Origin: a virus
Lineage: Duplodnaviria > Heunggongvirae > Uroviricota > Caudoviricetes
IMG/VR virus record: IMGVR_UViG_2617270968_000003
Location: 1 to 16,694 of that record
DNA: 16,694 nucleotides
Reading direction: 5' to 3' (one strand)
Positions 1,623 to 16,694 of the stretch are shown here, in pieces. The notes under the pieces were generated by a model. That model was not told where the DNA came from, made no database searches, and worked only from the letters and a program-made list of their open reading frames with translations. Numbering within the stretch: position 1 is the stretch's first letter; the number at the start of each line of letters is the position of its first letter. The position numbers were made by a program, and so were the translations under genes.

Positions 1623-1746
1623 ATGTCTGCACCTGCACTGCCTGATGTCAGAACAGTATTTTGATGAATTGCCAAGGTTACAATGGCACAAATACGGCAC
1701 AGGAGGAAACGTGGTGTATTTAAATATGGGGTAACTCTTTGATTTT

Positions 1747-3276
1747 AATGGTGCCGATAATAGGAGTCGAACCTACGACCTTCGCATTACGAATTATAAG
1801 AATCCACTTCTAATTCAAAGCATTACCCCATCAACACTGCGCTCACACGTCCCACCACATCAAAACATGTAAAGCCTTGCAAGCCATTGTGAGGCCTTAT
1901 GTGTCTCAGTTTTGTCCCACCTTGTATTACGACTTGCATAGCCAATGAAGATCAACGTGACGACAAACGGCGCAGCAGTCTTCTTTTCCTTCATACTTTC
2001 CCCAATCAGCATACATACTTTCTACCATAACTGTAGTGAATGTCTGTTATGAGCGAGCAAAAGAGATTCAATTACCGGGGAATTACTCCGACATAAGCTC
2101 TCCCAGAAACACCGGAACAGCGATTCGCATATTCTCTTCTATACTTTCAGTCTGACCGGCTGGAGATTTCATAGCAAGAAAATGGATGCGCCAAGACCTA
2201 TGCGGGAAAGAGGCTGAGGAAATAATTGCCGATAGCACTGTGCCCGCCGAAAAGTTATCTGGCACGCAATGACGCGCGTCCTTGGGGCATCAGGAATCAG
2301 AGAGCCAACTTAACAACCCATTATATATTATTTAACCGGACCGTTACATGTACAAAGTTCAATGATTAGTGATTCTGTGACGCCACATACAACCTAAGCC
2401 CCTGATATAAAACCAGTCTATGCAACACCTAAAAATCATATATGATAGGGTGATAAGTCAACGCGCAGTATAAAAATCAAGCTAAAAAATGCTTTCAGCA
2501 TAGTGAATCTATTTCACACTACATAATTAAGGATGAAAAAATGACTGCACCAGTAATTAGTTTTATCAATATGAAAGGTGGGGTTGGTAAAACAACTTTA
2601 TGCGTTGGGATTGCTGAGTTTTTAGCCAACCATATGGGGCGCAAGGTTCTAGTTATCGATATTGATCCTCAATTTAATGCCACTCAGTCCTTAATGGGGC
2701 ATTATGATCGAGTAGAAGAATATATGACTGCCCTTCGCCCTAATAATCAAACCATTCGAAAGATTTTTGAGCTTCCAAATTCATTAATGGAAGATGAAAA
2801 GAAAGTGACACCAGAACAGGTCATTACTAAAGTTTCAGACAATCTTGATATTATCTTAGGTGATATAAACATTATCTTTGATACTAACCAAGAGGGTATT
2901 AGAATAAAAATGTTGCGTAAATTCATCACCGAAAATGACTTAAAAGAAAGTTACGACTATATCTTTATCGATAGCCCCCCAACAATCTCATTATTTACAG
3001 ATACCGCACTCCTTGCTTCTGATTATTATCTTACTCCGGTTAAAATTGATCACTACTCGGTGCTTGGAGCAAGCAGTTTAAATAGCGTTATAAGAAATAT
3101 GCGCACACATCATGAGAAAGAAATCAAGCAAGTCGGTTACATTTATACAAACACTGATGCTGAAATGACCAATAAAACAAGGGAAATTAAAGAGCAATTC
3201 GAAAACCATACTCAATTTACAAATTTTTATTTCTTTGAAAATCAATTAACCTACGTGCGTGATTTAATGGTAGGTT
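1747..3276. repeat. Direct repeat copy 1 (about 1530 bp) of the element's left end: att fragment, 745-bp leader, 5' 736 nt of ParA-like gene
   Basis: Matches 15165..16694 at offset 13,418; verified by eye at both ends and at internal points; two 60-aa ORF translations in the track are identical between copies. Confidence 0.85.
1749..1794 (-). other. 46-nt 3' fragment of tRNA-Thr(CGU) (thrW-type) - attachment-site copy (ptwF-like tRNA pseudogene), copy 1
   Basis: Plus strand reads TGGTGCCGATAATAGGAGTCGAACCTACGACCTTCGCATTACGAAT, the reverse complement of a tRNA 3' end (CCA, acceptor stem, T-arm GGTTCGACTCC, anticodon loop with CGT); similarity stops where the 5' half of a tRNA should be, so the gene is partial. 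Confidence 0.8.
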
Positions 3277-3386
3277 ATCAAGGGAATATTCCTTCTTGTT
3301 ATTCAAAGTCACGCCAAGATATAGAAAAGATCTGTAACGAATTTATTAACAGAGTGGCTCACTTGGAAGGTAACACAAATGAATAA
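2541..3386 (+). CDS. ParA/MinD/Soj-family P-loop ATPase (deviant Walker A), 281 aa; first gene of a three-gene operon
   Basis: N-terminal ISFINMKGGVGKTT (KGGxGKT deviant Walker A), VIDIDPQ, IFIDSPP (ParA-type Walker B region); ATG at 2541 with AAGGA SD 7 nt upstream; AT-rich. Confidence 0.85.
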   Translation: MTAPVISFINMKGGVGKTTLCVGIAEFLANHMGRKVLVIDIDPQFNATQSLMGHYDRVEEYMTALRPNNQTIRKIFELPNSLMEDEKKVTPEQVITKVSDNLDIILGDINIIFDTNQEGIRIKMLRKFITENDLKESYDYIFIDSPPTISLFTDTALLASDYYLTPVKIDHYSVLGASSLNSVIRNMRTHHEKEIKQVGYIYTNTDAEMTNKTREIKEQFENHTQFTNFYFFENQLTYVRDLMVGYQGNIPSCYSKSRQDIEKICNEFINRVAHLEGNTNE

Positions 3387-3777
3387 ACAATTAATTAAAG
3401 CGCTCAATAAAGCTAACAATATGCCCATGACCAAAGAAAACTTCTTAGGCTTGGTAATTATGTTGATTCTTTCAAAAGAGGTTTTTAGATCAAATTTTGA
3501 TGTTAGTAAATTTATTAACAAAACCTTCAAAATATCTTTTTTGAATTATGCTGTACGGTCAAGAACTTTGATGTGCGCTAAAATTTGCAAACATATTAAT
3601 GAATTAAGTGAGAATGACATAAAGATGGCTTATACGCATTTCTTAAACAACATTAACACATTAGACATTATTTTTAATGATGCAAATAAAACAAGCCAAA
3701 AATCCACATCTAAAAGCAAGCATGCTATAAGGAATTTAAATATTTGGATTAATGCAAATAAAAAGGAAGAAGAATAA
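3379..3777 (+). CDS. Hypothetical protein, 132 aa, Lys/Asn-rich; second gene of the ParA-like operon
   Basis: ATG at 3379 overlaps the ParA stop by 8 nt (ATGAATAA) with GGAAGG SD; same AT-rich composition; no motif I can assign. Confidence 0.6.
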   Translation: MNKQLIKALNKANNMPMTKENFLGLVIMLILSKEVFRSNFDVSKFINKTFKISFLNYAVRSRTLMCAKICKHINELSENDIKMAYTHFLNNINTLDIIFNDANKTSQKSTSKSKHAIRNLNIWINANKKEEE

Positions 3778-4442
3778 TGCTCACGCAGGATCCCTTCAAC
3801 ATTGGAAGAGATGTAAATTATTTTAGAGCGGAGGTGCAAAAGCACCTCAGAACCACTGATGAAATAAACAAATCAGTATCAATATTTAGGCAAATAAGTC
3901 TTTGTAATACAATTTTAAGTCACAATCCTAATCTAAATCACTCTTCTTATATAAAAGGTTTTATATATGATACCTTAAACTCCTTAATTGCCATTATAAA
4001 AAAAAGAGAACGGTATCTCCAACTGAACTTCCGCTCAATGGTGGAGCATGTGGCCAGAATAAGCCTCAATAAGAACTACAATGGTGGGGATTTTGACCAA
4101 ACTGTACGTCGTAGAGACTTTGACTTCTTAAAAGCCCAACAAGTCGATGAAGGCTGGTCTTATTTACATAATGTCTATATCAACGCCTGTTATTATGTTC
4201 ACTCCTCCCCCCAAGCGAACCTAAATGTTACATCAACATTTATATCACTTATGGAGGGAGATTGTAATTCAACACAGCATAAAATGGTGAAAAAACTTCA
4301 TGAGGTAGTATCGGCGCTGATGAGAATCATTATAAAGTATTATCATCAGCATATCTCAAACATTTTCTTTAGAAACAAAAAGGATTTAGAGAAAATAATG
4401 GGAAAAAGCCTTTATTCATATTATACCAGCTTAGACAATTAA
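3777..4442 (+). CDS. Hypothetical protein, 221 aa; third gene of the ParA-like operon
   Basis: ATG at 3777 overlaps the previous stop (TAATG) with AAGGAAGA SD; AT-rich; no recognisable domain by eye. Confidence 0.6.
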   Translation: MLTQDPFNIGRDVNYFRAEVQKHLRTTDEINKSVSIFRQISLCNTILSHNPNLNHSSYIKGFIYDTLNSLIAIIKKRERYLQLNFRSMVEHVARISLNKNYNGGDFDQTVRRRDFDFLKAQQVDEGWSYLHNVYINACYYVHSSPQANLNVTSTFISLMEGDCNSTQHKMVKKLHEVVSALMRIIIKYYHQHISNIFFRNKKDLEKIMGKSLYSYYTSLDN

Positions 4443-4479
4443 TTCTCTCATATTCATTGCGTAGAGCATAAATATCTAT

Positions 4480-4900
4480 CTAACCACCTAAAATGCCAGA
4501 AAATCTAGTTGTATACCGGTGCGAAAATATCTCGCGTTTCATCTGCCACTGCTGCTGAATGCCCTGCCCAGCGAAACAGAGTGTTTCCTTCCCGTCTTTT
4601 GCGTTGAGGTGCTCCAGCACGCTCATTAACTTTTCGCTCCCAGGACCCAGCGCGTTATCGTCGAATAGGTTAGGGCATGCTCTGACTGAAGAAGTCCCCC
4701 AGCATTACCCCGGCTTTCTGATATCGGTGTCCGTCTTTCCATATTGCATCCAGACTCCCCGTTGCTACTGCAATGATATCCCGACTGTCCTGTGTCGGGA
4801 TGAGCAGCTTCACCGACGCGTTGTTACAGTAGTACGACTCGTTCAACGCAAAGGGTATCGTGTAAAACCGATGATGACACTGCCGGCAATCAGCACTGAC
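4480..4900 (-). pseudogene. umuC: 3' remnant of a umuC-like Y-family (Pol V) translesion polymerase gene; frameshifted and truncated
   Basis: Minus-strand translation gives ...PFALNESYYCNNASVKLLIPTQDSRDIIAVATGSLDAIWKDGHRYQKAGVMLGDFFSQ, then after a frameshift NLFDDNALGPGSEKLMSVLEHLNAKDGKETLCFAGQGIQQQWQMKREIFSHRYTTRF, closely matching the remembered C-terminal ~140 aa of E. coli UmuC; no intact ORF, N-terminal 2/3 absent. Confidence 0.75.
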
Positions 4901-5372
4901 GTCAGCAAACGTGAGAAAGAACAGATAAGCCGAACGATTTAGGAAATGTTTGAAGAGACTGATATGTGGATGGTTTCAGTTTAAACGCCTTGAACCGTCA
5001 TATTACCTAAGTACAATCCGCTGTGACTGGCAATCATTCAATACTTGCACTATCAAAAGTGCATCAGCCAACCGCAGCACGTCTTGCATACGACCTGTCT
5101 GCGGTTTCAATCACCTCTCACCACCAGTCCCATCAATAATAATTAAACAGCGCCTAAACAAAATAAATAACAACAAGTCAACAACCTCGACAGGATGCCG
5201 ATGGGATGATGAAGAGATAAGAAAGAATAACTAGTAAAGCCCTAAAACGTCAGCGTTCAGACGCGTTTTTTACTTAACCGGTAACAAATACGTTGTATCA
5301 TAGCAACATAAAATGATTGTTCTAAATCAGATTAACTCCTCACTTTTGTACAATGTCGCTTACAGGTATACC

Positions 5373-7262
5373 ATGAAATCCGAGACGCTAACTGTCCAAC
5401 AACTTTTTCAAGACCGCCGACAATACTGTGTTCCATTCTATCAACGTGCCTATGTATGGACTCAGCGAAACCAATGGTCAGCTCTACTGGAGGATATCCT
5501 AGAGAAAGCACAATCCCGGCTCTCGGGTACAAAACCAACTCCCCATTTCCTTGGTGCAGTTGTACTGGAACCTCAACCAAAAAAAGGATTATTCGGTGTA
5601 GATTCCATACATATTATTGATGGTCAGCAACGATTGACCACTCTTCAATATGTTCTGGCATCCATCCGATTAGCATTACGTGCAACAGATCTTTCCAACT
5701 TAGAGCCTCTCATTTCGTCTTGCCTGAAAAACTCAAACGAAGACACAATGCGAAATAAAGAAGTAGAGCGCTTCAAACTGTGGCCAACTTTTCGGGATCA
5801 AACTCATTTTATTCAAAGTTTTAATGTTGAAAATATTGACGATATCCGGAATGTATTCTCTGATAGTTTCACGCAGCATGGTACGTTGCGTAAGCATTTT
5901 AATCACCCGCCATCACTAGAAGCATTATGTTTTTTTACTGAAGCCTTTATAAAGTGGATTAAAATAGAAAATCACTCACCACGAGAAAATGCTGTAGCAT
6001 TAATTGAGGCTGTCTTGACGGATCTGAAACTAGTAAGCATATTTCTCGAGGCTGAAGATGACGCTCAAATAATTTTTGAAACATTAAATGGCAGAGGTGC
6101 GGAACTTCATGCCACAGATCTTATTCGCAATTATATTTTTATGTGCGCTGAACATGAAAATATTAATGCTGTTGAATTATATGAGAATGAGTGGAAGATC
6201 TTTGAAGATACGTACTGGTCAGAAAGACAACGTCGTGGTCGTATTAATAAACCACGCATGGAGTGGCTAGTGCATGCAACATTGCAATCAGAAAGGCAAC
6301 GTGAAATCGATCTGTCTCGTCTTTACAATGAGTATCGTGATTATGTAAGTAAGGACTTGCCTTCACAACGAGCAGATCTGCAAGTAAAGCGCCTCAAACA
6401 ATATGCATCACAATATAAAGAATTGGTTGGTGGTTTTGGCACAACCCCCATCTCACACTTTGGACATCGCATCGCAGCCTATGATGTGACGACACTTTAT
6501 CCGCTTGCTTTGTTCATTTCGATAGCTAACATCGCCGATGATGAGAAAGCAGCCATGTATAATGATCTTGTCTCCTACGTAGTACGAAGAGCCGTATGTG
6601 GCCTGACGCCAAAGAATTACAACAATGTATTTATGAATGTATTGCGGCACTTGTCTAAAACAGAAATTTCCAGTGTTGAGTTACGTAATATCCTCAATAG
6701 CTTAAATGGCGAAGCCTCACGTTGGCCTGGGGACTCAGAATTTCTCAACGCTTGCATCAATGCTCCACTTTATCCTGGCAGGCTCGACGCACCGAAAATG
6801 CGCTCAATGTTAACGGAACTTGAAAGAGAACTTTGTCGCCAAGTGAAGACAGAGAAGCCTGATGTTCCAAATCTTTCTAACCTCGATATCGATCATCTTA
6901 TGCCTCAAAGTTGGTATTCCTGTTGGCCTCTCGAAAATGGTCATATGGTGACAAATTCAGATGCTACGGTATTGAACCAAATTGTTCTGTCTGGAACCGA
7001 TCTTACCCCAGAACAGCTACTGGTAAGGAAACGGCAACAAGCGATAGCTACGTTGGGAAATCTAACTTTGCTTAACCTTAGCGTAAACCGTTCTGTTCAG
7101 AATGCTGTATTTCTGAAAAAACGTGATGCTCTCATCGTCCACACCAATCTACGACTGAACATTCCACTTATAGTTAAGGATAAATGGGATGAGGATGAAA
7201 TCCTGGAGCGGGGTAAAATGTTGGGGGAAATTGCATTGAAAGTATGGCCAAAACACGATTAA
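5373..7262 (+). CDS. GmrSD-family type IV (modification-dependent) restriction endonuclease: N-terminal DUF262 (ParB-like NTPase) + C-terminal DUF1524 (His-Me finger nuclease)
   Basis: DUF262 signatures VPFYQRAYVW and IIDGQQRLTT; C-terminal DIDHLMPQSW ... LGNLTLLNLSVNRSVQNAVFLKKR typical of DUF1524; about 630 aa. Start taken at 5373 (MKSETLT, weak AGG SD); in-frame ATG at 5313 is possible. Confidence 0.8.
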   Translation: MKSETLTVQQLFQDRRQYCVPFYQRAYVWTQRNQWSALLEDILEKAQSRLSGTKPTPHFLGAVVLEPQPKKGLFGVDSIHIIDGQQRLTTLQYVLASIRLALRATDLSNLEPLISSCLKNSNEDTMRNKEVERFKLWPTFRDQTHFIQSFNVENIDDIRNVFSDSFTQHGTLRKHFNHPPSLEALCFFTEAFIKWIKIENHSPRENAVALIEAVLTDLKLVSIFLEAEDDAQIIFETLNGRGAELHATDLIRNYIFMCAEHENINAVELYENEWKIFEDTYWSERQRRGRINKPRMEWLVHATLQSERQREIDLSRLYNEYRDYVSKDLPSQRADLQVKRLKQYASQYKELVGGFGTTPISHFGHRIAAYDVTTLYPLALFISIANIADDEKAAMYNDLVSYVVRRAVCGLTPKNYNNVFMNVLRHLSKTEISSVELRNILNSLNGEASRWPGDSEFLNACINAPLYPGRLDAPKMRSMLTELERELCRQVKTEKPDVPNLSNLDIDHLMPQSWYSCWPLENGHMVTNSDATVLNQIVLSGTDLTPEQLLVRKRQQAIATLGNLTLLNLSVNRSVQNAVFLKKRDALIVHTNLRLNIPLIVKDKWDEDEILERGKMLGEIALKVWPKHD

Positions 7263-7284
7263 TGCAATTAATAAAATGATTATA

Positions 7285-7310
7285 GCGGCCTTACATTAGT
7301 AAGGCCGCTA
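7285..7310 (+). terminator. Stem-loop downstream of the GmrSD gene (11-bp perfect stem AGCGGCCTTAC / GTAAGGCCGCT, 4-nt loop)
   Basis: Perfect inverted repeat 23 nt after the stop; trailing sequence only moderately T-rich, so may act as terminator or RNA-stability hairpin. Confidence 0.55.
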
Positions 7311-7512
7311 CTCACTATTAAATCCTTTAATTTGCAACAAGAACAGCAGTGTCAGCCCTAGGTTTCGGACTTTGTACCGCTTATCTTGTCTTCAAAAATC
7401 AGCTCGCATCCTGCACAGCTCAACGCATTACGTTGTAGATCGGTGTTCTGGTCATTTGTTGATACGCGTACATAGCCAATAAGCATGGTAGATCCCCCTG
7501 ACAAAAGCAGGA

Positions 7513-8085
7513 ATGATGCCATTTGCTCGTTATTTCTGCATTTTCATAAACGTTGGTTTGGGAGAAGGTGCTCCAGCTATTGGCGTTCCGTTCTTCTGGC
7601 CGTCCGCCGCAATGCCAAATACTGTAATCGACAGTTGGTCCAGTATGGTGTTTTTGAAGTTCAACGGCGCGAAATTCTCTGCCACTGATTACCCTGTGCT
7701 GGCGAAAGTGTTTCCGGCGCTAGCATTACCTGACGCACGGGGTGATTTCATTCGTATCTGGGATGATGGGCGCGGGATTGATGTCGGACGTACCCTACTT
7801 TCAGGGCAATCACACACAATTATGGATCATGCACACAATATGGAATTGTGGACGGGGGACGGGCTTGCCGCAGGAAGTGCACGGGAAGGAGTAAACCCAG
7901 GAATACTGGCTACATACGGTGACGGGGGAATAGTTAAAACGGACGAACCCGGTCTTAAGGTGCCTTCCTCACTACGAGCTCTTAGCTCTCGTAGTGTTAA
8001 ACGTTATGGTGAAATTAGTGGAAATGTAGATACAGAAACCCGTCCACGAAATATTGCATTTAACTTTCTGGTGAGGGCTAAATAA
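7513..8085 (+). CDS. Phage tail-fibre C-terminal fragment (tail-collar domain), 190-aa ORF; probably a remnant
   Basis: PFFWP...MPNTVIDSW...NGAKFSATDYPVLAKVFP...LPDARGDFIRIWDDGRGID fits the phage tail-collar pattern; C-terminal ...ETRPRNIAFNFLVRAK is tail-fibre-like; no N-terminal anchoring region and no other structural genes nearby. Confidence 0.5.
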   Translation: MMPFARYFCIFINVGLGEGAPAIGVPFFWPSAAMPNTVIDSWSSMVFLKFNGAKFSATDYPVLAKVFPALALPDARGDFIRIWDDGRGIDVGRTLLSGQSHTIMDHAHNMELWTGDGLAAGSAREGVNPGILATYGDGGIVKTDEPGLKVPSSLRALSSRSVKRYGEISGNVDTETRPRNIAFNFLVRAK

Positions 8086-8146
8086 TGATACCTGTTTTTG
8101 ATGAAAATGGGCTGGCTACAGTGCCGGGCGATATGCGTTGTTTTTA

Positions 8147-8320
8147 TTATAATGCAGTATCCCCTTCACAACGGTGAGCCACACGCCCACTCTGACGTAA
8201 CTTGCTTGCTGACTGCTGAACGCGCTGCCGCGAGTAACCAGCAAAAGCATCCGCAATGTCTCCGGAAGTACACCCCGGATTGGCTTCAATGAATTTCTGA
8301 ACGTCATTTAACAGACTCAT
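8147..8320 (-). CDS. Small hypothetical protein (57 aa), possible winged-helix DNA-binding protein, coupled to the replication gene
   Basis: ATG at 8320 lies 2 nt after the TGA stop of the upstream gene, with an AGGGGG SD; translation MSLLNDVQKFIEANPGCTSGDIADAFAGYSRQRVQQSASKLRQSGRVAHRCEGDTAL; under 60 aa so absent from the ORF track. Confidence 0.4.
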   Translation of the reverse strand: MSLLNDVQKFIEANPGCTSGDIADAFAGYSRQRVQQSASKLRQSGRVAHRCEGDTAL

Positions 8321-8322
8321 GA

Positions 8323-9264
8323 TCACCCCCTGAATCCTGCCGGGATCTGGCTGTAGTCCACGTTGTCGTAACTGGCTTTGAAGTACGGGTCTTCACGTTT
8401 TTCTGTGTGCGTGCTGACGGACGGCGATAAGCGCAGGGAAAGCTCATCCCATTTTTCCCGCAACTTCGACGGGCTGAGCACGTTACGGCACCAGAACGGA
8501 TCGCGGCTGACGCGGCTGTACATCTCGCAGATTTGTTTGTGAGTACGACCATCCTGCACACACATCAGGCGAATTTCGTTTGCCCAGGCTGTCCAGTTAG
8601 GTTCTTTGGGACGAACCACCTCGCCGTCACATTCGGCGGCCTGCTCGTACAGGGCGATGATTTTTTTCCAGAGCCACTGTGCGCAGGTCAAATCATCCTG
8701 CGTTCCCCACTGGCGCTTTTTAGAGCTGAATACAACCGCATCAGGATGACGAGTTAAAAAATCCTGTTCATCCTTCTTCATGTCCGGTTGCGAAGCGTCC
8801 GGACGAGAAGTTTTTTTATCTGACGGATCATGTTTTGATTTTACTGACGGATCCCCGCCAGATTCTGACGGGTGAAAACCCGCTTTTTTGCCAGATTTCG
8901 ACGCATCAAATTTTGACGGGTCAGATTTTGATGCGTCAGATTTTGACGGGTCAGAATCTGACAGTTGAGAAAATGCCGCTGCCTGAAGCTTCGCAACGTT
9001 AAGCTGATAAACATTCGACGCATTGCGGTTACCCTGGCGACGCGCCTTACGCGTTAACCAGCCTTCTGCTTCCAGCCGTGCGATAGCCGTTCTGACGGTA
9101 CTCATCCCCGCGCCAATCTGGCGGGCAATGGTTTCAATTGATGGCCAGCACACACCTTCGTCATTACTGAAATCAGCCAGGCGGGCCATAATTGCCACGC
9201 TGGATAACTTCATGCCTGACGCAGCGCAACCATCCCATACATAGCCGGTTAATTTAGTGCTCAT
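8323..9264 (-). CDS. Phage replication initiation protein (lambda O-like: N-terminal winged HTH, pentapeptide-repeat linker, C-terminal domain), 313 aa
   Basis: N-terminus LSSVAIMARLADFSNDEGVCWPSIETIARQIGAGMSTVRTAIARLEAEGWLTRKARRQGNRNASNVYQLN resembles replication-initiator wHTH domains; GAGG SD before ATG at 9264; position after cro/CII genes on the same strand. Confidence 0.65.
   Translation of the reverse strand: MSTKLTGYVWDGCAASGMKLSSVAIMARLADFSNDEGVCWPSIETIARQIGAGMSTVRTAIARLEAEGWLTRKARRQGNRNASNVYQLNVAKLQAAAFSQLSDSDPSKSDASKSDPSKFDASKSGKKAGFHPSESGGDPSVKSKHDPSDKKTSRPDASQPDMKKDEQDFLTRHPDAVVFSSKKRQWGTQDDLTCAQWLWKKIIALYEQAAECDGEVVRPKEPNWTAWANEIRLMCVQDGRTHKQICEMYSRVSRDPFWCRNVLSPSKLREKWDELSLRLSPSVSTHTEKREDPYFKASYDNVDYSQIPAGFRG
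8861..8964. repeat. Imperfect tandem 15-bp repeats (GATTTTGACGGGTCA-like, about 6 units) inside the replication-initiator gene, encoding DPSKS/DASKS pentapeptide repeats
   Basis: Units at 8861, 8894, 8909, 8924, 8939 and a partial one at 8954; protein shows SDSDPSKSDASKSDPSKFDASKSGKK. Confidence 0.8.
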
Positions 9265-9273
9265 GACCGACCT

Positions 9274-9612
9274 CTATTTCCCTGAATTTACGACGAAACT
9301 GTTCGAGCGGGCTGAAGCACTCATGCTCATAGCCTTCGCGGAGGTAGATAACCCGTTGTGTTTCCGGCTCCCAACGAATGACTCTGACGGGTACTCCGTA
9401 GTGATCTTTGAACCAGCGGTTAACTTGTCGCAAAGGACTGTCTCCTTCTGCCGGTTGAAATCACCCACAGCCCACTCTGCAAAGCTGTGGGTTACAATTT
9501 CCCTGTCACCTGGTACATTCACTGCATAGCAATATTCCACCTTCGCTTTTCCACCCGGTACAGGAAGCGCAATCAGTTGCGAGCGACGGTAGTGTGTTGT
9601 TAAACTGTTCAT
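9274..9612 (-). CDS. Hypothetical protein, 112 aa, between CII-like and replication genes
   Basis: ATG at 9612 overlaps the CII-like stop as ATGA; GGAGA SD 9 nt upstream; stop 9 nt before the next gene's SD. Contains a 9-bp perfect hairpin at 9463..9492. No recognisable domain. Confidence 0.45.
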
Positions 9613-10178
9613 GCGTTAGTTTCTCCACAACCAGAAGCAATCGACGCCACGACGCCCGGAGCTGCACACTCGCGGGCGTCATTACTTTCTGAAATGCAAA
9701 AAATTTTGTAAACAAGTGCTGCATGCTCCTGCAGCTTCGAAATTGAGAGATACAGCTCGTCGTTAATTGCTGTCTTCTCATGCGGTTCCACTACACCGTC
9801 TTCGATTGCTGAACGAATCTGTTTTGAATAACTGCCGATCTGTTCAATGACTTCCAGCAGACGCTGGTTAATATCGGCGTTGTCCACATCCTCGACGTCA
9901 GGAAGAGACACAAAGACGCCATTTGCAGACTGCGCCACAGCATCAGCAATGAAGTGAGTGCCACCAGCACGCTGTAAAACCATTGCCCATCCCAGCGGGA
10001 AAATCTGATCGCCATCTGCACGAAGGCGGTTGAATAAAGCGTTTTCTGTTACATCGAGCCAGTCAGCCGCTTCAGCGTAACCACCCGGCAACGCCGCGAT
10101 AGTTTTTCTGACAGCTTTCACGTACCACTCAGGCTGTTTTTCTATTTTCCAGTGATGCTTACCCACGATTAGCCTCAT
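9609..10178 (-). CDS. Phage regulatory protein, CII-like (CP76/YdaT-like family), 189 aa
   Basis: Immediately downstream of the cro-like gene on the same strand, as lambda cII is; size and context fit the enterobacterial prophage CII-like family; family assignment is from memory. Confidence 0.5.
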
Positions 10179-10500: not shown

Positions 10501-11175
10501 ATGAAAACAATCCATGACATCCGGCGGTCTAACGCCAGAAAACTGAGAGATGGTGTTGGCGGGAATTCTTCCTTTGCCACTATGATTGATCGCGAGCCAA
10601 CCCAGACCAGCAGGTTTATGGGAGATGGTGCTACTAAAAATATCGGTGACAGCATGGCACGACACATCGAAAAATGTTTCGACCTGCCTGTCGGATGGCT
10701 CGATCAAGAACACCAGACAACGAACATCACAAAAAAACCTGATGTTTCAATCACTAATAAACAAATCACATTAGTCCCTGTCATATCATGGGTACAGGCC
10801 GGAGCATGGAAAGAAGTTGGATATTCTGAGGTTGATTTGAGCACAGCAGAAACGTATCCCTGCCCTGTACCCTGTGGGGAAATGACTTATATCTTGCGGG
10901 TGATAGGTGATTCAATGATTGATGAGTACCGCCCGGGAGACATGATTTTTGTCGATCCTGAAGTACCTGCCTGCCACGGTGACGACGTTATTGCATTGAT
11001 GCACGATACAGGTGAAACCACCTTCAAAAGGTTGATAGAAGATGGGACACAGCGTTATCTCAAAGCGTTAAACCCAAACTGGCCTGAGCCTTACATTAAG
11101 ATCAACGGTAATTGCTCTATAATTGGAACTGTGATTTTCTCAGGAAAACCAAGAAGATACAAAATCAAAGCCTAA
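10501..11175 (+). CDS. CI-like phage repressor with C-terminal S24 (LexA-like) autopeptidase domain, 224 aa
   Basis: C-terminal VIGDSMIDEYRPGDMIFVDP...GDDVIA (S24 Ser site GDSM, later Lys); divergent from cro-like gene; no SD upstream of the ATG, so possibly leaderless like lambda cI from PRM. Confidence 0.75.
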   Translation: MKTIHDIRRSNARKLRDGVGGNSSFATMIDREPTQTSRFMGDGATKNIGDSMARHIEKCFDLPVGWLDQEHQTTNITKKPDVSITNKQITLVPVISWVQAGAWKEVGYSEVDLSTAETYPCPVPCGEMTYILRVIGDSMIDEYRPGDMIFVDPEVPACHGDDVIALMHDTGETTFKRLIEDGTQRYLKALNPNWPEPYIKINGNCSIIGTVIFSGKPRRYKIKA

Positions 11176-14112: not shown

Positions 14113-15152
14113 AGGCTGAAGCATGGCGGGTCAGCAAACTTGGTGAAATACCTGATATAACGTTCGAGGAAGCGTGTGTCAGGTGGCTTGAAGAGAAAGC
14201 ACATAAAAAATCACTGGACGATGACAAAAGCCGGATCGGATTCTGGCTTCAACATTTCGCAGGAATGCAACTAAGAGACATTACTGAATCAAAAATTTAT
14301 TCAGCAATGCAGAAAATGACGAACCGGCGTCATGAGGAAAACTGGAGACTCAGGGCAGAAGCATGCAGAAAAAAAGGGAAACCTGTTCCAGAATACACGC
14401 CAAAACCAGCGTCCGTTGCAACGAAGGCTACGCATCTTTCATTTATAAAGGCCCTACTAAGAGCCGCAGAGCGTGAATGGAAAATGCTGGATAAGGCACC
14501 AATTATTAAAGTGCCTCAACCAAAGAATAAACGGATCCGCTGGCTGGAGCCCCATGAAGCACAAAGGCTGATTGATGAATGTCCGGAGCCATTAAAGTCT
14601 GTTGTTGAATTTGCACTGGCAACAGGTTTAAGACGCTCGAACATCATCAACCTTGAATGGCAACAAATAGATATGCAGCGCCGGGTGGCATGGATAAACC
14701 CGGAAGAGAGTAAATCAAACCGCGCAATTGGCGTTGCGCTGAATGATACTGCATGTCGCGTATTGAAAAAACAAATCGGGAATCATCACCGTTGGGTATT
14801 TGTGTACAAGGAAAGCTGTACCAAACCAGACGGAACGAAAGCGCCAACAGTAAGGAAGATGCGGTATGACGCAAACACAGCCTGGAAAGCGGCGCTGAGA
14901 CGGGCTGGTATTGATGATTTCAGATTTCACGACTTGAGACACACCTGGGCAAGTTGGCTGGTTCAAGCCGGAGTCCCGTTGTCAGTGTTACAGGAAATGG
15001 GAGGCTGGGAGTCTATCGAAATGGTTCGTCGATATGCTCACCTTGCACCTAATCACCTTACCGAACACGCACGGCAAATAGACTCGATCCTGAACCCATC
15101 GGTCCCAAATTTGTCCCAGTCAAAAAATAAGGAAGGTACTAATGATGTGTAA
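13989..15152 (+). CDS. int: Tyrosine-type site-specific recombinase (phage integrase), 387 aa
   Basis: N-terminal arm-binding-like [34 protein letters not shown]; C-terminal catalytic [12 protein letters not shown] ... MVRRYAHL (R-H-R-Y); ends 14 nt before the tRNA-fragment att copy. Confidence 0.85.
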
Positions 15153-15166
15153 CTTATTGATTTAAA

Positions 15167-15212
15167 TGGTGCCGATAATAGGAGTCGAACCTACGACCTT
15201 CGCATTACGAAT
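15167..15212 (-). other. 46-nt 3' fragment of tRNA-Thr(CGU), attachment-site copy 2, directly after int
   Basis: Identical to the fragment at 1749..1794; again followed by element-left-end sequence instead of the tRNA 5' half. Confidence 0.8.
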
Positions 15213-15958
15213 TATAAGAATCCACTTCTAATTCAAAGCATTACCCCATCAACACTGCGCTCACACGTCCCACCACATCAAAACATGTAAAGCCTTGCAA
15301 GCCATTGTGAGGCCTTATGTGTCTCAGTTTTGTCCCACCTTGTATTACGACTTGCATAGCCAATGAAGATCAACGTGACGACAAACGGCGCAGCAGTCTT
15401 CTTTTCCTTCATACTTTCCCCAATCAGCATACATACTTTCTACCATAACTGTAGTGAATGTCTGTTATGAGCGAGCAAAAGAGATTCAATTACCGGGGAA
15501 TTACTCCGACATAAGCTCTCCCAGAAACACCGGAACAGCGATTCGCATATTCTCTTCTATACTTTCAGTCTGACCGGCTGGAGATTTCATAGCAAGAAAA
15601 TGGATGCGCCAAGACCTATGCGGGAAAGAGGCTGAGGAAATAATTGCCGATAGCACTGTGCCCGCCGAAAAGTTATCTGGCACGCAATGACGCGCGTCCT
15701 TGGGGCATCAGGAATCAGAGAGCCAACTTAACAACCCATTATATATTATTTAACCGGACCGTTACATGTACAAAGTTCAATGATTAGTGATTCTGTGACG
15801 CCACATACAACCTAAGCCCCTGATATAAAACCAGTCTATGCAACACCTAAAAATCATATATGATAGGGTGATAAGTCAACGCGCAGTATAAAAATCAAGC
15901 TAAAAAATGCTTTCAGCATAGTGAATCTATTTCACACTACATAATTAAGGATGAAAAA

Positions 15959-16694
15959 ATGACTGCACCAGTAATTAGTTTTATCAATATGAAAGGTGGG
16001 GTTGGTAAAACAACTTTATGCGTTGGGATTGCTGAGTTTTTAGCCAACCATATGGGGCGCAAGGTTCTAGTTATCGATATTGATCCTCAATTTAATGCCA
16101 CTCAGTCCTTAATGGGGCATTATGATCGAGTAGAAGAATATATGACTGCCCTTCGCCCTAATAATCAAACCATTCGAAAGATTTTTGAGCTTCCAAATTC
16201 ATTAATGGAAGATGAAAAGAAAGTGACACCAGAACAGGTCATTACTAAAGTTTCAGACAATCTTGATATTATCTTAGGTGATATAAACATTATCTTTGAT
16301 ACTAACCAAGAGGGTATTAGAATAAAAATGTTGCGTAAATTCATCACCGAAAATGACTTAAAAGAAAGTTACGACTATATCTTTATCGATAGCCCCCCAA
16401 CAATCTCATTATTTACAGATACCGCACTCCTTGCTTCTGATTATTATCTTACTCCGGTTAAAATTGATCACTACTCGGTGCTTGGAGCAAGCAGTTTAAA
16501 TAGCGTTATAAGAAATATGCGCACACATCATGAGAAAGAAATCAAGCAAGTCGGTTACATTTATACAAACACTGATGCTGAAATGACCAATAAAACAAGG
16601 GAAATTAAAGAGCAATTCGAAAACCATACTCAATTTACAAATTTTTATTTCTTTGAAAATCAATTAACCTACGTGCGTGATTTAATGGTAGGTT
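15959..16694 (+). CDS. ParA/MinD-like ATPase, second copy, 3' end beyond window
   Basis: Identical to 2541..3276 of copy 1 by the repeat offset; same Walker A motif. Confidence 0.8.
   Translation, partial: MTAPVISFINMKGGVGKTTLCVGIAEFLANHMGRKVLVIDIDPQFNATQSLMGHYDRVEEYMTALRPNNQTIRKIFELPNSLMEDEKKVTPEQVITKVSDNLDIILGDINIIFDTNQEGIRIKMLRKFITENDLKESYDYIFIDSPPTISLFTDTALLASDYYLTPVKIDHYSVLGASSLNSVIRNMRTHHEKEIKQVGYIYTNTDAEMTNKTREIKEQFENHTQFTNFYFFENQLTYVRDLMVG

Follow-up and report, generated by a model that had tools for sequence, protein, structure and literature searches.

A probable deletion scar of an SOS module in a degraded lambdoid prophage at thrW

In the stretch of DNA analysed here (16,694 nucleotides, referred to as the window), the 3' ends of a umuC-like and a dinI-like gene form what is very probably a non-functional deletion scar of the SOS module of a lambdoid prophage at thrW, generated by a single deletion of about 1.5 kb and subjected to decay afterwards. 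The two remnants, designated umuC' and 'dinI, point away from each other and are joined head to head, the 5' end being missing from both (Table 1). A third member of the former module, SRAP' (SOS response-associated peptidase), is likewise present as a frameshifted remnant. An initial annotation of this DNA had read the region as a frameshifted 3' remnant of a umuC-like gene without the catalytic part and the element as a decayed mosaic; this core reading is supported here and agrees with the RefSeq PGAP annotation. The dinI remnant adjoining umuC' on the plus strand had been overlooked, however, and bases 4859-4900 are dinI and not umuC. Of the extent given at that time (about 140 aa, 4480-4900), the start at 4480 is kept, while the length has to be reduced to about 127 aa and the end moved to 4856.

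Table 1 Features of the window that make up or surround the scar
Feature	Position	Strand	Description and evidence
att core	1750..1795		Copy of the 3' half of tRNA-Thr (thrW) at the island end by yagP'/paoD; alignment with the int-thrW junction of BS74R-D
SRAP remnant (SRAP')	2174..2313	+	PGAP pseudogene; residues 172-209 of UTAK-5 SRAP on 2174-2286 (tblastn)
AT-rich three-gene cassette	2541..4442	+	ParA-family ATPase (Pfam AAA_31/CbiA); 132-aa and 221-aa proteins without Pfam family
umuC remnant (umuC')	4480..4856	-	Codons ~296-422 of a 422-aa UmuC-like Y-family polymerase; stop codon TAG at 4480-4482
48-aa ATG-initiated ORF	4480..4626	-	DUF4113 only; gene call with PF13438 in 3 of 10 assemblies (L089, L091, L092)
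5-bp deletion causing the frameshift	4671..4672	-	In the Q-L codons of ...AQLNLFDD...; MAFFT alignment with 8 intact umuC genes
Mechanical ORF	4559..4942	+	Antisense of umuC' (4559-4858), continuing in frame into dinI codons 40-66 and ending at the dinI nonsense codon
Deletion junction	4857..4858		5'-truncated umuC joined to 5'-truncated dinI; ~1.5 kb absent compared with intact relatives
dinI remnant ('dinI)	4859..4984	+	Codons 40-80 of an 80-aa DinI-family protein; in-frame CAG>TAG at 4940-4942
Mechanical ORF	4950..5234	+	dinI tail out of frame, pin 3'-flank-like sequence and GmrSD leader; non-coding
Type IV restriction enzyme gene of GmrSD type (DUF262/DUF1524), intact	5373..7262	+	Pfam GmrSD_N and GmrSD_C; PADLOC mREase_IV, full length, 1436 bits
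pin remnant (pin')	7355..7486	-	First 44 codons of a Pin/Hin-type invertase; tblastn 91% to UTAK-5 PinE 1-44

Identity and limits of the umuC and dinI remnants

The remnant umuC' comprises the end of the little-finger domain followed by DUF4113, in total about 127 residues or the last ~30% of the protein. That the minus strand encodes a UmuC C-terminus, as had been proposed, is borne out by several comparisons. In BLASTP, its translation, repaired across the frameshift, shows 74% identity (E 3e-63) to residues 294-419 of K-12 UmuC (b1184), which is the catalytic subunit of DNA polymerase V, and 76% identity (E 2e-66) to an intact Y-family polymerase encoded by a prophage of E. coli UTAK-5; its identity to UmuC proteins overall is 74-80%. 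Additionally, Pfam recognizes DUF4113 (6.7e-17, 61.7 bits vs. a cut-off of 24) as well as IMS_C (6.2e-06, 27 bits vs. a cut-off of 20.7), the latter only over profile positions 58-99. At the level of sequence, the match to UmuC goes far past chance. Using tblastn with UmuC, as the initial annotation had suggested for verification, UmuC residues 285-355 are found on 4888-4676 and residues 359-419 on 4671-4489, so that the similarity on which its proposal depended is indeed present. The two matches lie in different, adjacent minus frames, which read ...PFALNESYYCNNASVKLLIPTQDSRDIIAVATGSLDAIWKDGHRYQKAGVMLGDFFSQSMP and ...NLFDDNALGPGSEKLMSVLEHLNAKDGKETLCFAGQGIQQQWQMKREIFSHRYTTRFSGILGG, each up to a stop codon, and hence no uninterrupted reading frame exists.

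The frameshift, likewise already recognized from the letters, can be attributed to a deletion: between 4671 and 4672, all eight intact umuC genes aligned with MAFFT (K-12, UTAK-5, three Citrobacter, Enterobacter hormaechei, Escherichia whittamii and Salmonella arizonae) have five more bases than the window. The affected QLNLF is the beta-clamp-binding motif of UmuC. Translesion synthesis requires an intact UmuC beta-clamp-binding motif (SOS review PMC6590174). The loss is without further effect in a gene which is already short of its catalytic domain.

The absence of this N-terminal catalytic part had been claimed before and holds for the whole window, as UmuC residues 1-284 give no match anywhere in it (tblastn, E<=0.01, two full-length UmuC queries) and the Pfam IMS catalytic domain (palm, fingers and thumb; residues ~1-240) is absent from umuC', where only IMS_C and DUF4113 were found. 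Nor could umuD be detected in the window by tblastn; the sole UmuD-like match, at 10885-11034, falls on the S24 domain encoded by the prophage repressor gene. This ymfK-like gene of the LexA family (S24 peptidase; 10501-11175), whose UmuD-like tblastn match amounts to 47% over 51 aa, is not umuD. At the DNA level, homology of umuC' with five intact relatives stops at 4855/4856.

On the opposite strand, residues 40-78 of UTAK-5 DinI are found by tblastn on 4859-4975 (82% over 39 aa, E 1e-19). Beyond the in-frame TAG, the dinI frame runs on to its normal stop codon at 4982-4984, as judged by DNA alignment with UTAK-5 dinI. Hence, 'dinI does not represent a full-length protein of about 80 aa with a start codon, but only the TAG-interrupted residues 40-80. 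The 28-aa piece preceding the TAG gives no Pfam match, for which it is too short. The window represents chromosomal DNA of E. coli. Strain BS74R-D is 100% identical to it over 4300-5300, and PGAP annotates its equivalent of 4480-4861 (-) as pseudogene 'DUF4113 domain-containing protein; frameshifted; incomplete; missing N-terminus' and its equivalent of 4856-4942 (+) as 'DinI family protein; missing N-terminus'.

Two mechanically called plus-strand ORFs cover parts of this region, and both had been regarded as artefacts of the hidden umuC fragment. While neither of them is a gene, only ORF 4559-4942 owes anything to umuC, and even this ORF is partly dinI: it shares its frame with the dinI tblastn match, and its last 27 sense codons represent the true dinI frame. 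ORF 4950-5234 does not overlap umuC' at all. Here, positions 4974-5117 are 76% identical to the sequence 3' of UTAK-5 pinE, and the leader 5029-5312 occurs at 92-97% identity in hundreds of E. coli genomes with no feature annotated there. Neither ORF has a Pfam family, a PGAP call or a gene call in ten other assemblies. An Rfam search (E<=0.1) combined with a promoter and terminator scan of the region returned no RNA family and no terminator, and promoter-like sites at chance level only.

The intact SOS module and its probable deletion

Five intact relatives, including UTAK-5 and two Citrobacter species, carry the genes in the order SRAP (+), umuC (-), umuD (-), LexA box and dinI (+). In the UTAK-5 locus (NZ_CP157152.1, 1599231-1601905), SRAP is located at 7307-7978 (+), the Y-family polymerase at 7971-9239 (-), umuD, which is itself frameshifted, at 9241-9661 (-) and dinI at 9739-9981 (+), followed by hipA, a DUF3037 gene, pinE (-), a tail protein gene and tfaE. 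The 77 bp between umuD and dinI contain a perfect LexA box, CTGTATATAAATACAG. SRAP directly adjoins umuC in UTAK-5, C. werkmanii and the intact locus L067, and generally the counterparts of SRAP' and umuC' abut or overlap in the intact relatives. Of the 78 intact umuC loci compared from enterobacterial species representatives, ten encode DinI divergently upstream of umuD. In 22, an SRAP gene is found no further than 1.5 kb from umuC, and in 20 of these it is located downstream in convergent orientation. All three, SRAP, umuC and DinI, come together in four loci, including C. werkmanii and C. youngae, which are also, along with UTAK-5, among the closest relatives of umuC'. SRAP/umuDC/dinI is thus a recurrent mobile module.

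The three remnants of the window share gene order and orientation with the modules of UTAK-5, C. werkmanii and C. youngae, as well as a neighbourhood of cargo, pinE, tail fibre and tail-fibre assembly genes; DNA identity to this module type is 82% for umuC and 87% for dinI. In contrast to the window, with its deletion of about 1.5 kb, the UTAK-5-type module has a full-length polymerase gene and dinI, with the LexA box between umuD and dinI. Further differences are the ParA cassette, which parts SRAP' from umuC', and the GmrSD gene, which stands in place of the HipA/DUF3037 cargo and most of pin. A umuDC operon is not present, as umuD is missing upstream of umuC' and no LexA box is found in the window, both of which UTAK-5 possesses: a perfect box (CTGT-N8-ACAG) is absent from the window, and matches with one mismatch (six found vs. 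5.1 expected) are at chance level.

The ancestor would accordingly have been a lambdoid prophage integrating at thrW, with the SOS module in the cargo region between attP and the pin/tail-fibre genes. In this ancestral module, SRAP on the plus strand would have been followed by umuC and umuD on the minus strand, a divergent promoter region of about 77 bp with a LexA box, and dinI on the plus strand. One deletion of about 1.5 kb, from umuC codon ~295 to dinI codon ~39, would then have stripped umuC of its catalytic two-thirds and dinI of its start, along with the whole of umuD and the shared SOS promoter region, leaving the 3' ends of umuC and dinI joined head to head at 4856-4859. SRAP was gutted, too. 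In the window, 2138-2170 matches the sequence just 5' of the intact SRAP start and is joined directly to codon 172, from which it follows that SRAP codons 1-171 have been deleted.

The alignment to intact umuDC loci, proposed earlier for locating the deletion endpoints, places the breakpoints at 4856 and 4859 in comparison with five relatives. On the umuC side homology ends at 4855/4856 and on the dinI side it begins at 4858/4859 relative to UTAK-5, C. werkmanii, C. youngae and L067, and the fifth relative, L039, gives two identical window breakpoints. With clean endpoints, as in the former four relatives, the missing interval measures 1498-1500 bp. Since the closest intact relative is only 82-87% identical, the junction is not resolvable to the base.

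Two or more separate deletions, for instance of umuD and the 5' part of umuC first and of the 5' part of dinI later, could have led to the same arrangement, and the limited resolution of the junction as well as the fact that neither an intermediate nor the direct ancestor was found would be compatible with such a course. The breakpoints are immediately adjacent, however, as no filler DNA separates them and no more than 1-2 bases remain unassigned, and the missing stretch is a contiguous interval in four intact relatives, which renders a stepwise origin very improbable. A single event, which appears more parsimonious from the arrangement of the sequence, is therefore preferred, and this deletion probably arose by illegitimate recombination.

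What speaks against the reading as scar of a single deletion is that an intact copy of this very umuC allele was not found, the ancestral arrangement being deduced from relatives rather than from a direct ancestor. Megablast against 5,426 complete E. coli genomes returned 52 copies of the scar (4470-4950 at >=99% identity, 51 of them over >=80% of the length) and three intact prophage-borne polymerase genes with 81-82% identity. Identity did not exceed 74% among plasmids and phages (blastn) and 80% at the protein level in 185,579 species-representative genomes, while contigs encoding the neighbouring 221-aa protein yielded ten contexts with the scar in all of them.

Devoid of promoter, start codons and selection, the remnants would subsequently have decayed, umuC' by the 5-bp deletion and substitutions and 'dinI by its nonsense codon. 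At positions that are invariant in the eight intact homologues, umuC' displays 15 private substitutions, compared to 0-4 per intact sequence in leave-one-out controls, which indicates that umuC' is decaying. These include G305C, T314I, Y388C and P407H (residue numbers past 357 are offset by 2, as the Q-L codons were dropped from the alignment). The dN/dS of the window versus its closest relatives is 0.11-0.20, compared to 0.06-0.07 among those relatives (124 codons; indicative only). Taken together, substitutions, dN/dS, 5-bp deletion and dinI nonsense codon point to relaxed selection after inactivation. Although raised, dN/dS of the window lineage is still far below 1, and part of the divergence may predate inactivation. 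Only three sites of umuC' vary among 12 scar copies, which is too few for a test of constraint by SNP density.

Probably nothing is expressed from the scar. The 48-aa ATG-initiated ORF within umuC' could nevertheless still be in use, providing a stand-alone DUF4113 peptide which interferes with the host polymerase V or its partners. This ORF has retained its ATG start, is intact in 12 of 12 copies, matches DUF4113 well above the Pfam threshold and was called as a gene in some assemblies (Table 1). Its intactness is uninformative, however, because the copies are 99.3-100% identical overall. Moreover, it contains seven of the 15 private substitutions noted above, the native promoter and LexA box are deleted, a scan of 4300-5450 revealed nothing promoter-like on the minus strand over the ~670 bp upstream, and PGAP treats the ORF as part of a pseudogene. 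Continued use of the ORF is hence very improbable, and that its sequence, intact in every copy of a block which the protein index has in about 3,000 sample blocks, might be expressed as free UmuC C-terminal peptide is hardly to be expected. If true, such a peptide could titrate a partner of host polymerase V, thereby damping or altering SOS mutagenesis in carriers.

With 74% protein identity to K-12 UmuC, umuC' might alternatively be regarded as a displaced copy of the host chromosomal umuC, resulting from duplication or recombination, instead of a remnant of a mobile-element umuDC. This origin has next to no probability and was rejected based on megablast and dS. In none of the 5,426 genomes did the megablast search with umuC' described above match chromosomal umuC, from which umuC' is too diverged for this method, and dS of umuC' versus K-12 umuC is saturated, compared to 0.7-1.1 versus the prophage-type alleles of UTAK-5 and Citrobacter. 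In addition, remnants of dinI and SRAP lie to either side of umuC', in agreement with the mobile module, whereas K-12 umuDC is located between hlyE and dsbB without either of them. Different from K-12 UmuC, to which it is similar over the end of IMS_C and DUF4113, the window encodes only the last ~30% and no catalytic domain, umuD or LexA box, and has the 5-bp deletion in the QLNLF codons. Finally, single frameshifts in assemblies are frequently errors, but that umuC is really intact, with a sequencing or assembly error or a programmed frameshift feigning its truncation, is practically precluded and refuted by the shared indel and the missing N-terminus, since the same 5-bp deletion and junction recur in 12 genomes assembled independently of one another, 4470-4950 has matches of >=99% in 52 complete E. 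coli genomes, a 5-bp gap is no homopolymer error, and 294 catalytic codons as well as umuD are missing from the whole window.

Prophage setting and cargo region

The element containing the scar is a degraded lambdoid prophage, a 13.4 kb stump without structural genes, located between thrW and yagP'/paoD, which is the CP4-6 site. Starting from the att core, of which a second copy is found at 15168-15213, the window displays SRAP', the AT-rich ParA cassette, umuC', 'dinI, the pin 3' flank, GmrSD and pin', followed by tail-fibre fragments, the immunity and early region, and int. A circular lambdoid phage genome of 44.8 kb, pCE-O153H30-A, carries int, attP, cargo (Avs2), pinE and tail genes in this order, and its integrase gene is identical to that of the window over the 3' stretch compared. 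Based on this gene order and the matching integrase, the scar lies in the phage cargo region between att and pin, i.e. the same position as the variable (defence) cargo region between attP and pin of pCE-O153H30-A and e14-like prophages. For the e14 prophage itself, the order is pinE, mcrA. Besides the integrase, the window shares with pCE-O153H30-A the att core and intact defence genes by the pin/tail-fibre genes. Unlike in such prophages, its cargo is pieced together from three dead SOS genes and two intact cassettes within the 13.4 kb stump.

The ParA cassette between SRAP' and umuC' has a GC content of 27-35%, compared to 51% in umuC'. Its 132-aa and 221-aa proteins give marginal PADLOC matches only; for the latter, the collection has entries in about 3,000 sample blocks. 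Being situated in a prophage cargo region beside GmrSD, the ParA cassette is possibly an uncharacterised defence or partition cassette.

The GmrSD gene has replaced most of pin. The corresponding cassette (5029-7567) displaced pin except for its first 44 codons, annotated by PGAP as 'recombinase family protein, missing C-terminus', while the pin 3'-flank-like sequence at 4974-5117 survives on the other side. A GmrSD cassette with matching pin stump (96-99% identical) is also present in E. coli prophages at other sites, e.g. by ssrA in PMV-1.

Several further observations concern the architecture of the element. Positions 15149-16694 and 1731-3276 form a direct repeat of 1546 bp with 99.8% identity, which reaches the window end; its copies are 13,418 bp apart, and its three mismatches are all within the first ~20 bases. 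The integrase gene is thus followed by the att core and then by the left arm of the island (SRAP', ParA) instead of thrW, resulting in an attP-like junction. Such a junction may reflect copies of the 13.4 kb stump arranged in tandem, its excision as a circle, or an artefact of assembly. No complete E. coli genome of the collection carries the ParA cassette twice, and one genome, ET201, contains an integrase-att-left-arm junction at 97% identity. At loci L088-L093, the att copy to the left of the ParA block (window 1747-1795) has received another island in several genomes, which encodes a P4-type integrase and, in four of them, also a methyltransferase and an ORC/CDC6-like ATPase. Hence, the thrW-distal att copy has been reused for tandem accretion of islands. 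Collinearity of the window with BS74R-D fails beyond 7960, where BS74R-D has an additional ISCro1 and the last 1.5 kb of the window repeat 1731-3276. This 2.7 kb ISCro1 (IS66 family) of BS74R-D, absent from the window, corresponds to 7953-7960, where an overlap of 8 bp looks like a target-site duplication; the point falls among tail-protein fragments. Moreover, 8892-8966 holds four overlapping copies of a CAGATTTTGACGGGT-like 30-nt unit with 15-bp spacing inside a 313-aa helix-turn-helix gene (8323-9264, minus strand), which look like origin iterons within the O-type replication gene of a lambdoid phage.

Spread of the scar and its meaning

The block 1747-5077 is found with at least 99.3% identity in ten further genomic contexts, and junction and 5-bp deletion are common to all 12 copies compared. 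In L091 and L094, homology ends at 5077 and 5109, respectively, and other genes take the place of the GmrSD cassette. Since the scar thus exists with and without this cassette, the exchange on the GmrSD side postdates the umuDC deletion. The ParA cassette, in turn, occurs in 52 complete E. coli genomes, and the scar is present in every one of them. The earlier expectation that the scar would date the cargo insertions relative to the loss of umuDC consequently holds for the later turnover on the GmrSD side only, while for the ParA cassette, which never occurs without the scar, no order is obtained.

The scar as such is already known, as PGAP marks these pseudogenes in more than 50 E. coli genomes; it is real but ordinary and of little importance alone. 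Its description fixes the boundaries of two adjacent pseudogenes, and the plus-strand ORFs should not be annotated as genes. Beyond that, the umuC'/'dinI junction in combination with the 5-bp deletion is of modest use as a clonal tag. It marks a 3.3 kb block comprising att, SRAP', the ParA cassette, umuC' and 'dinI, which many different prophage and island arrays of E. coli carry at their thrW-distal end. The block shows that loss of the SOS-mutagenesis module preceded the exchange of the defence cargo next to it, the GmrSD cassette. This agrees with the general view that prophage cargo regions turn over fast, with defence genes being kept and other accessory genes decaying.
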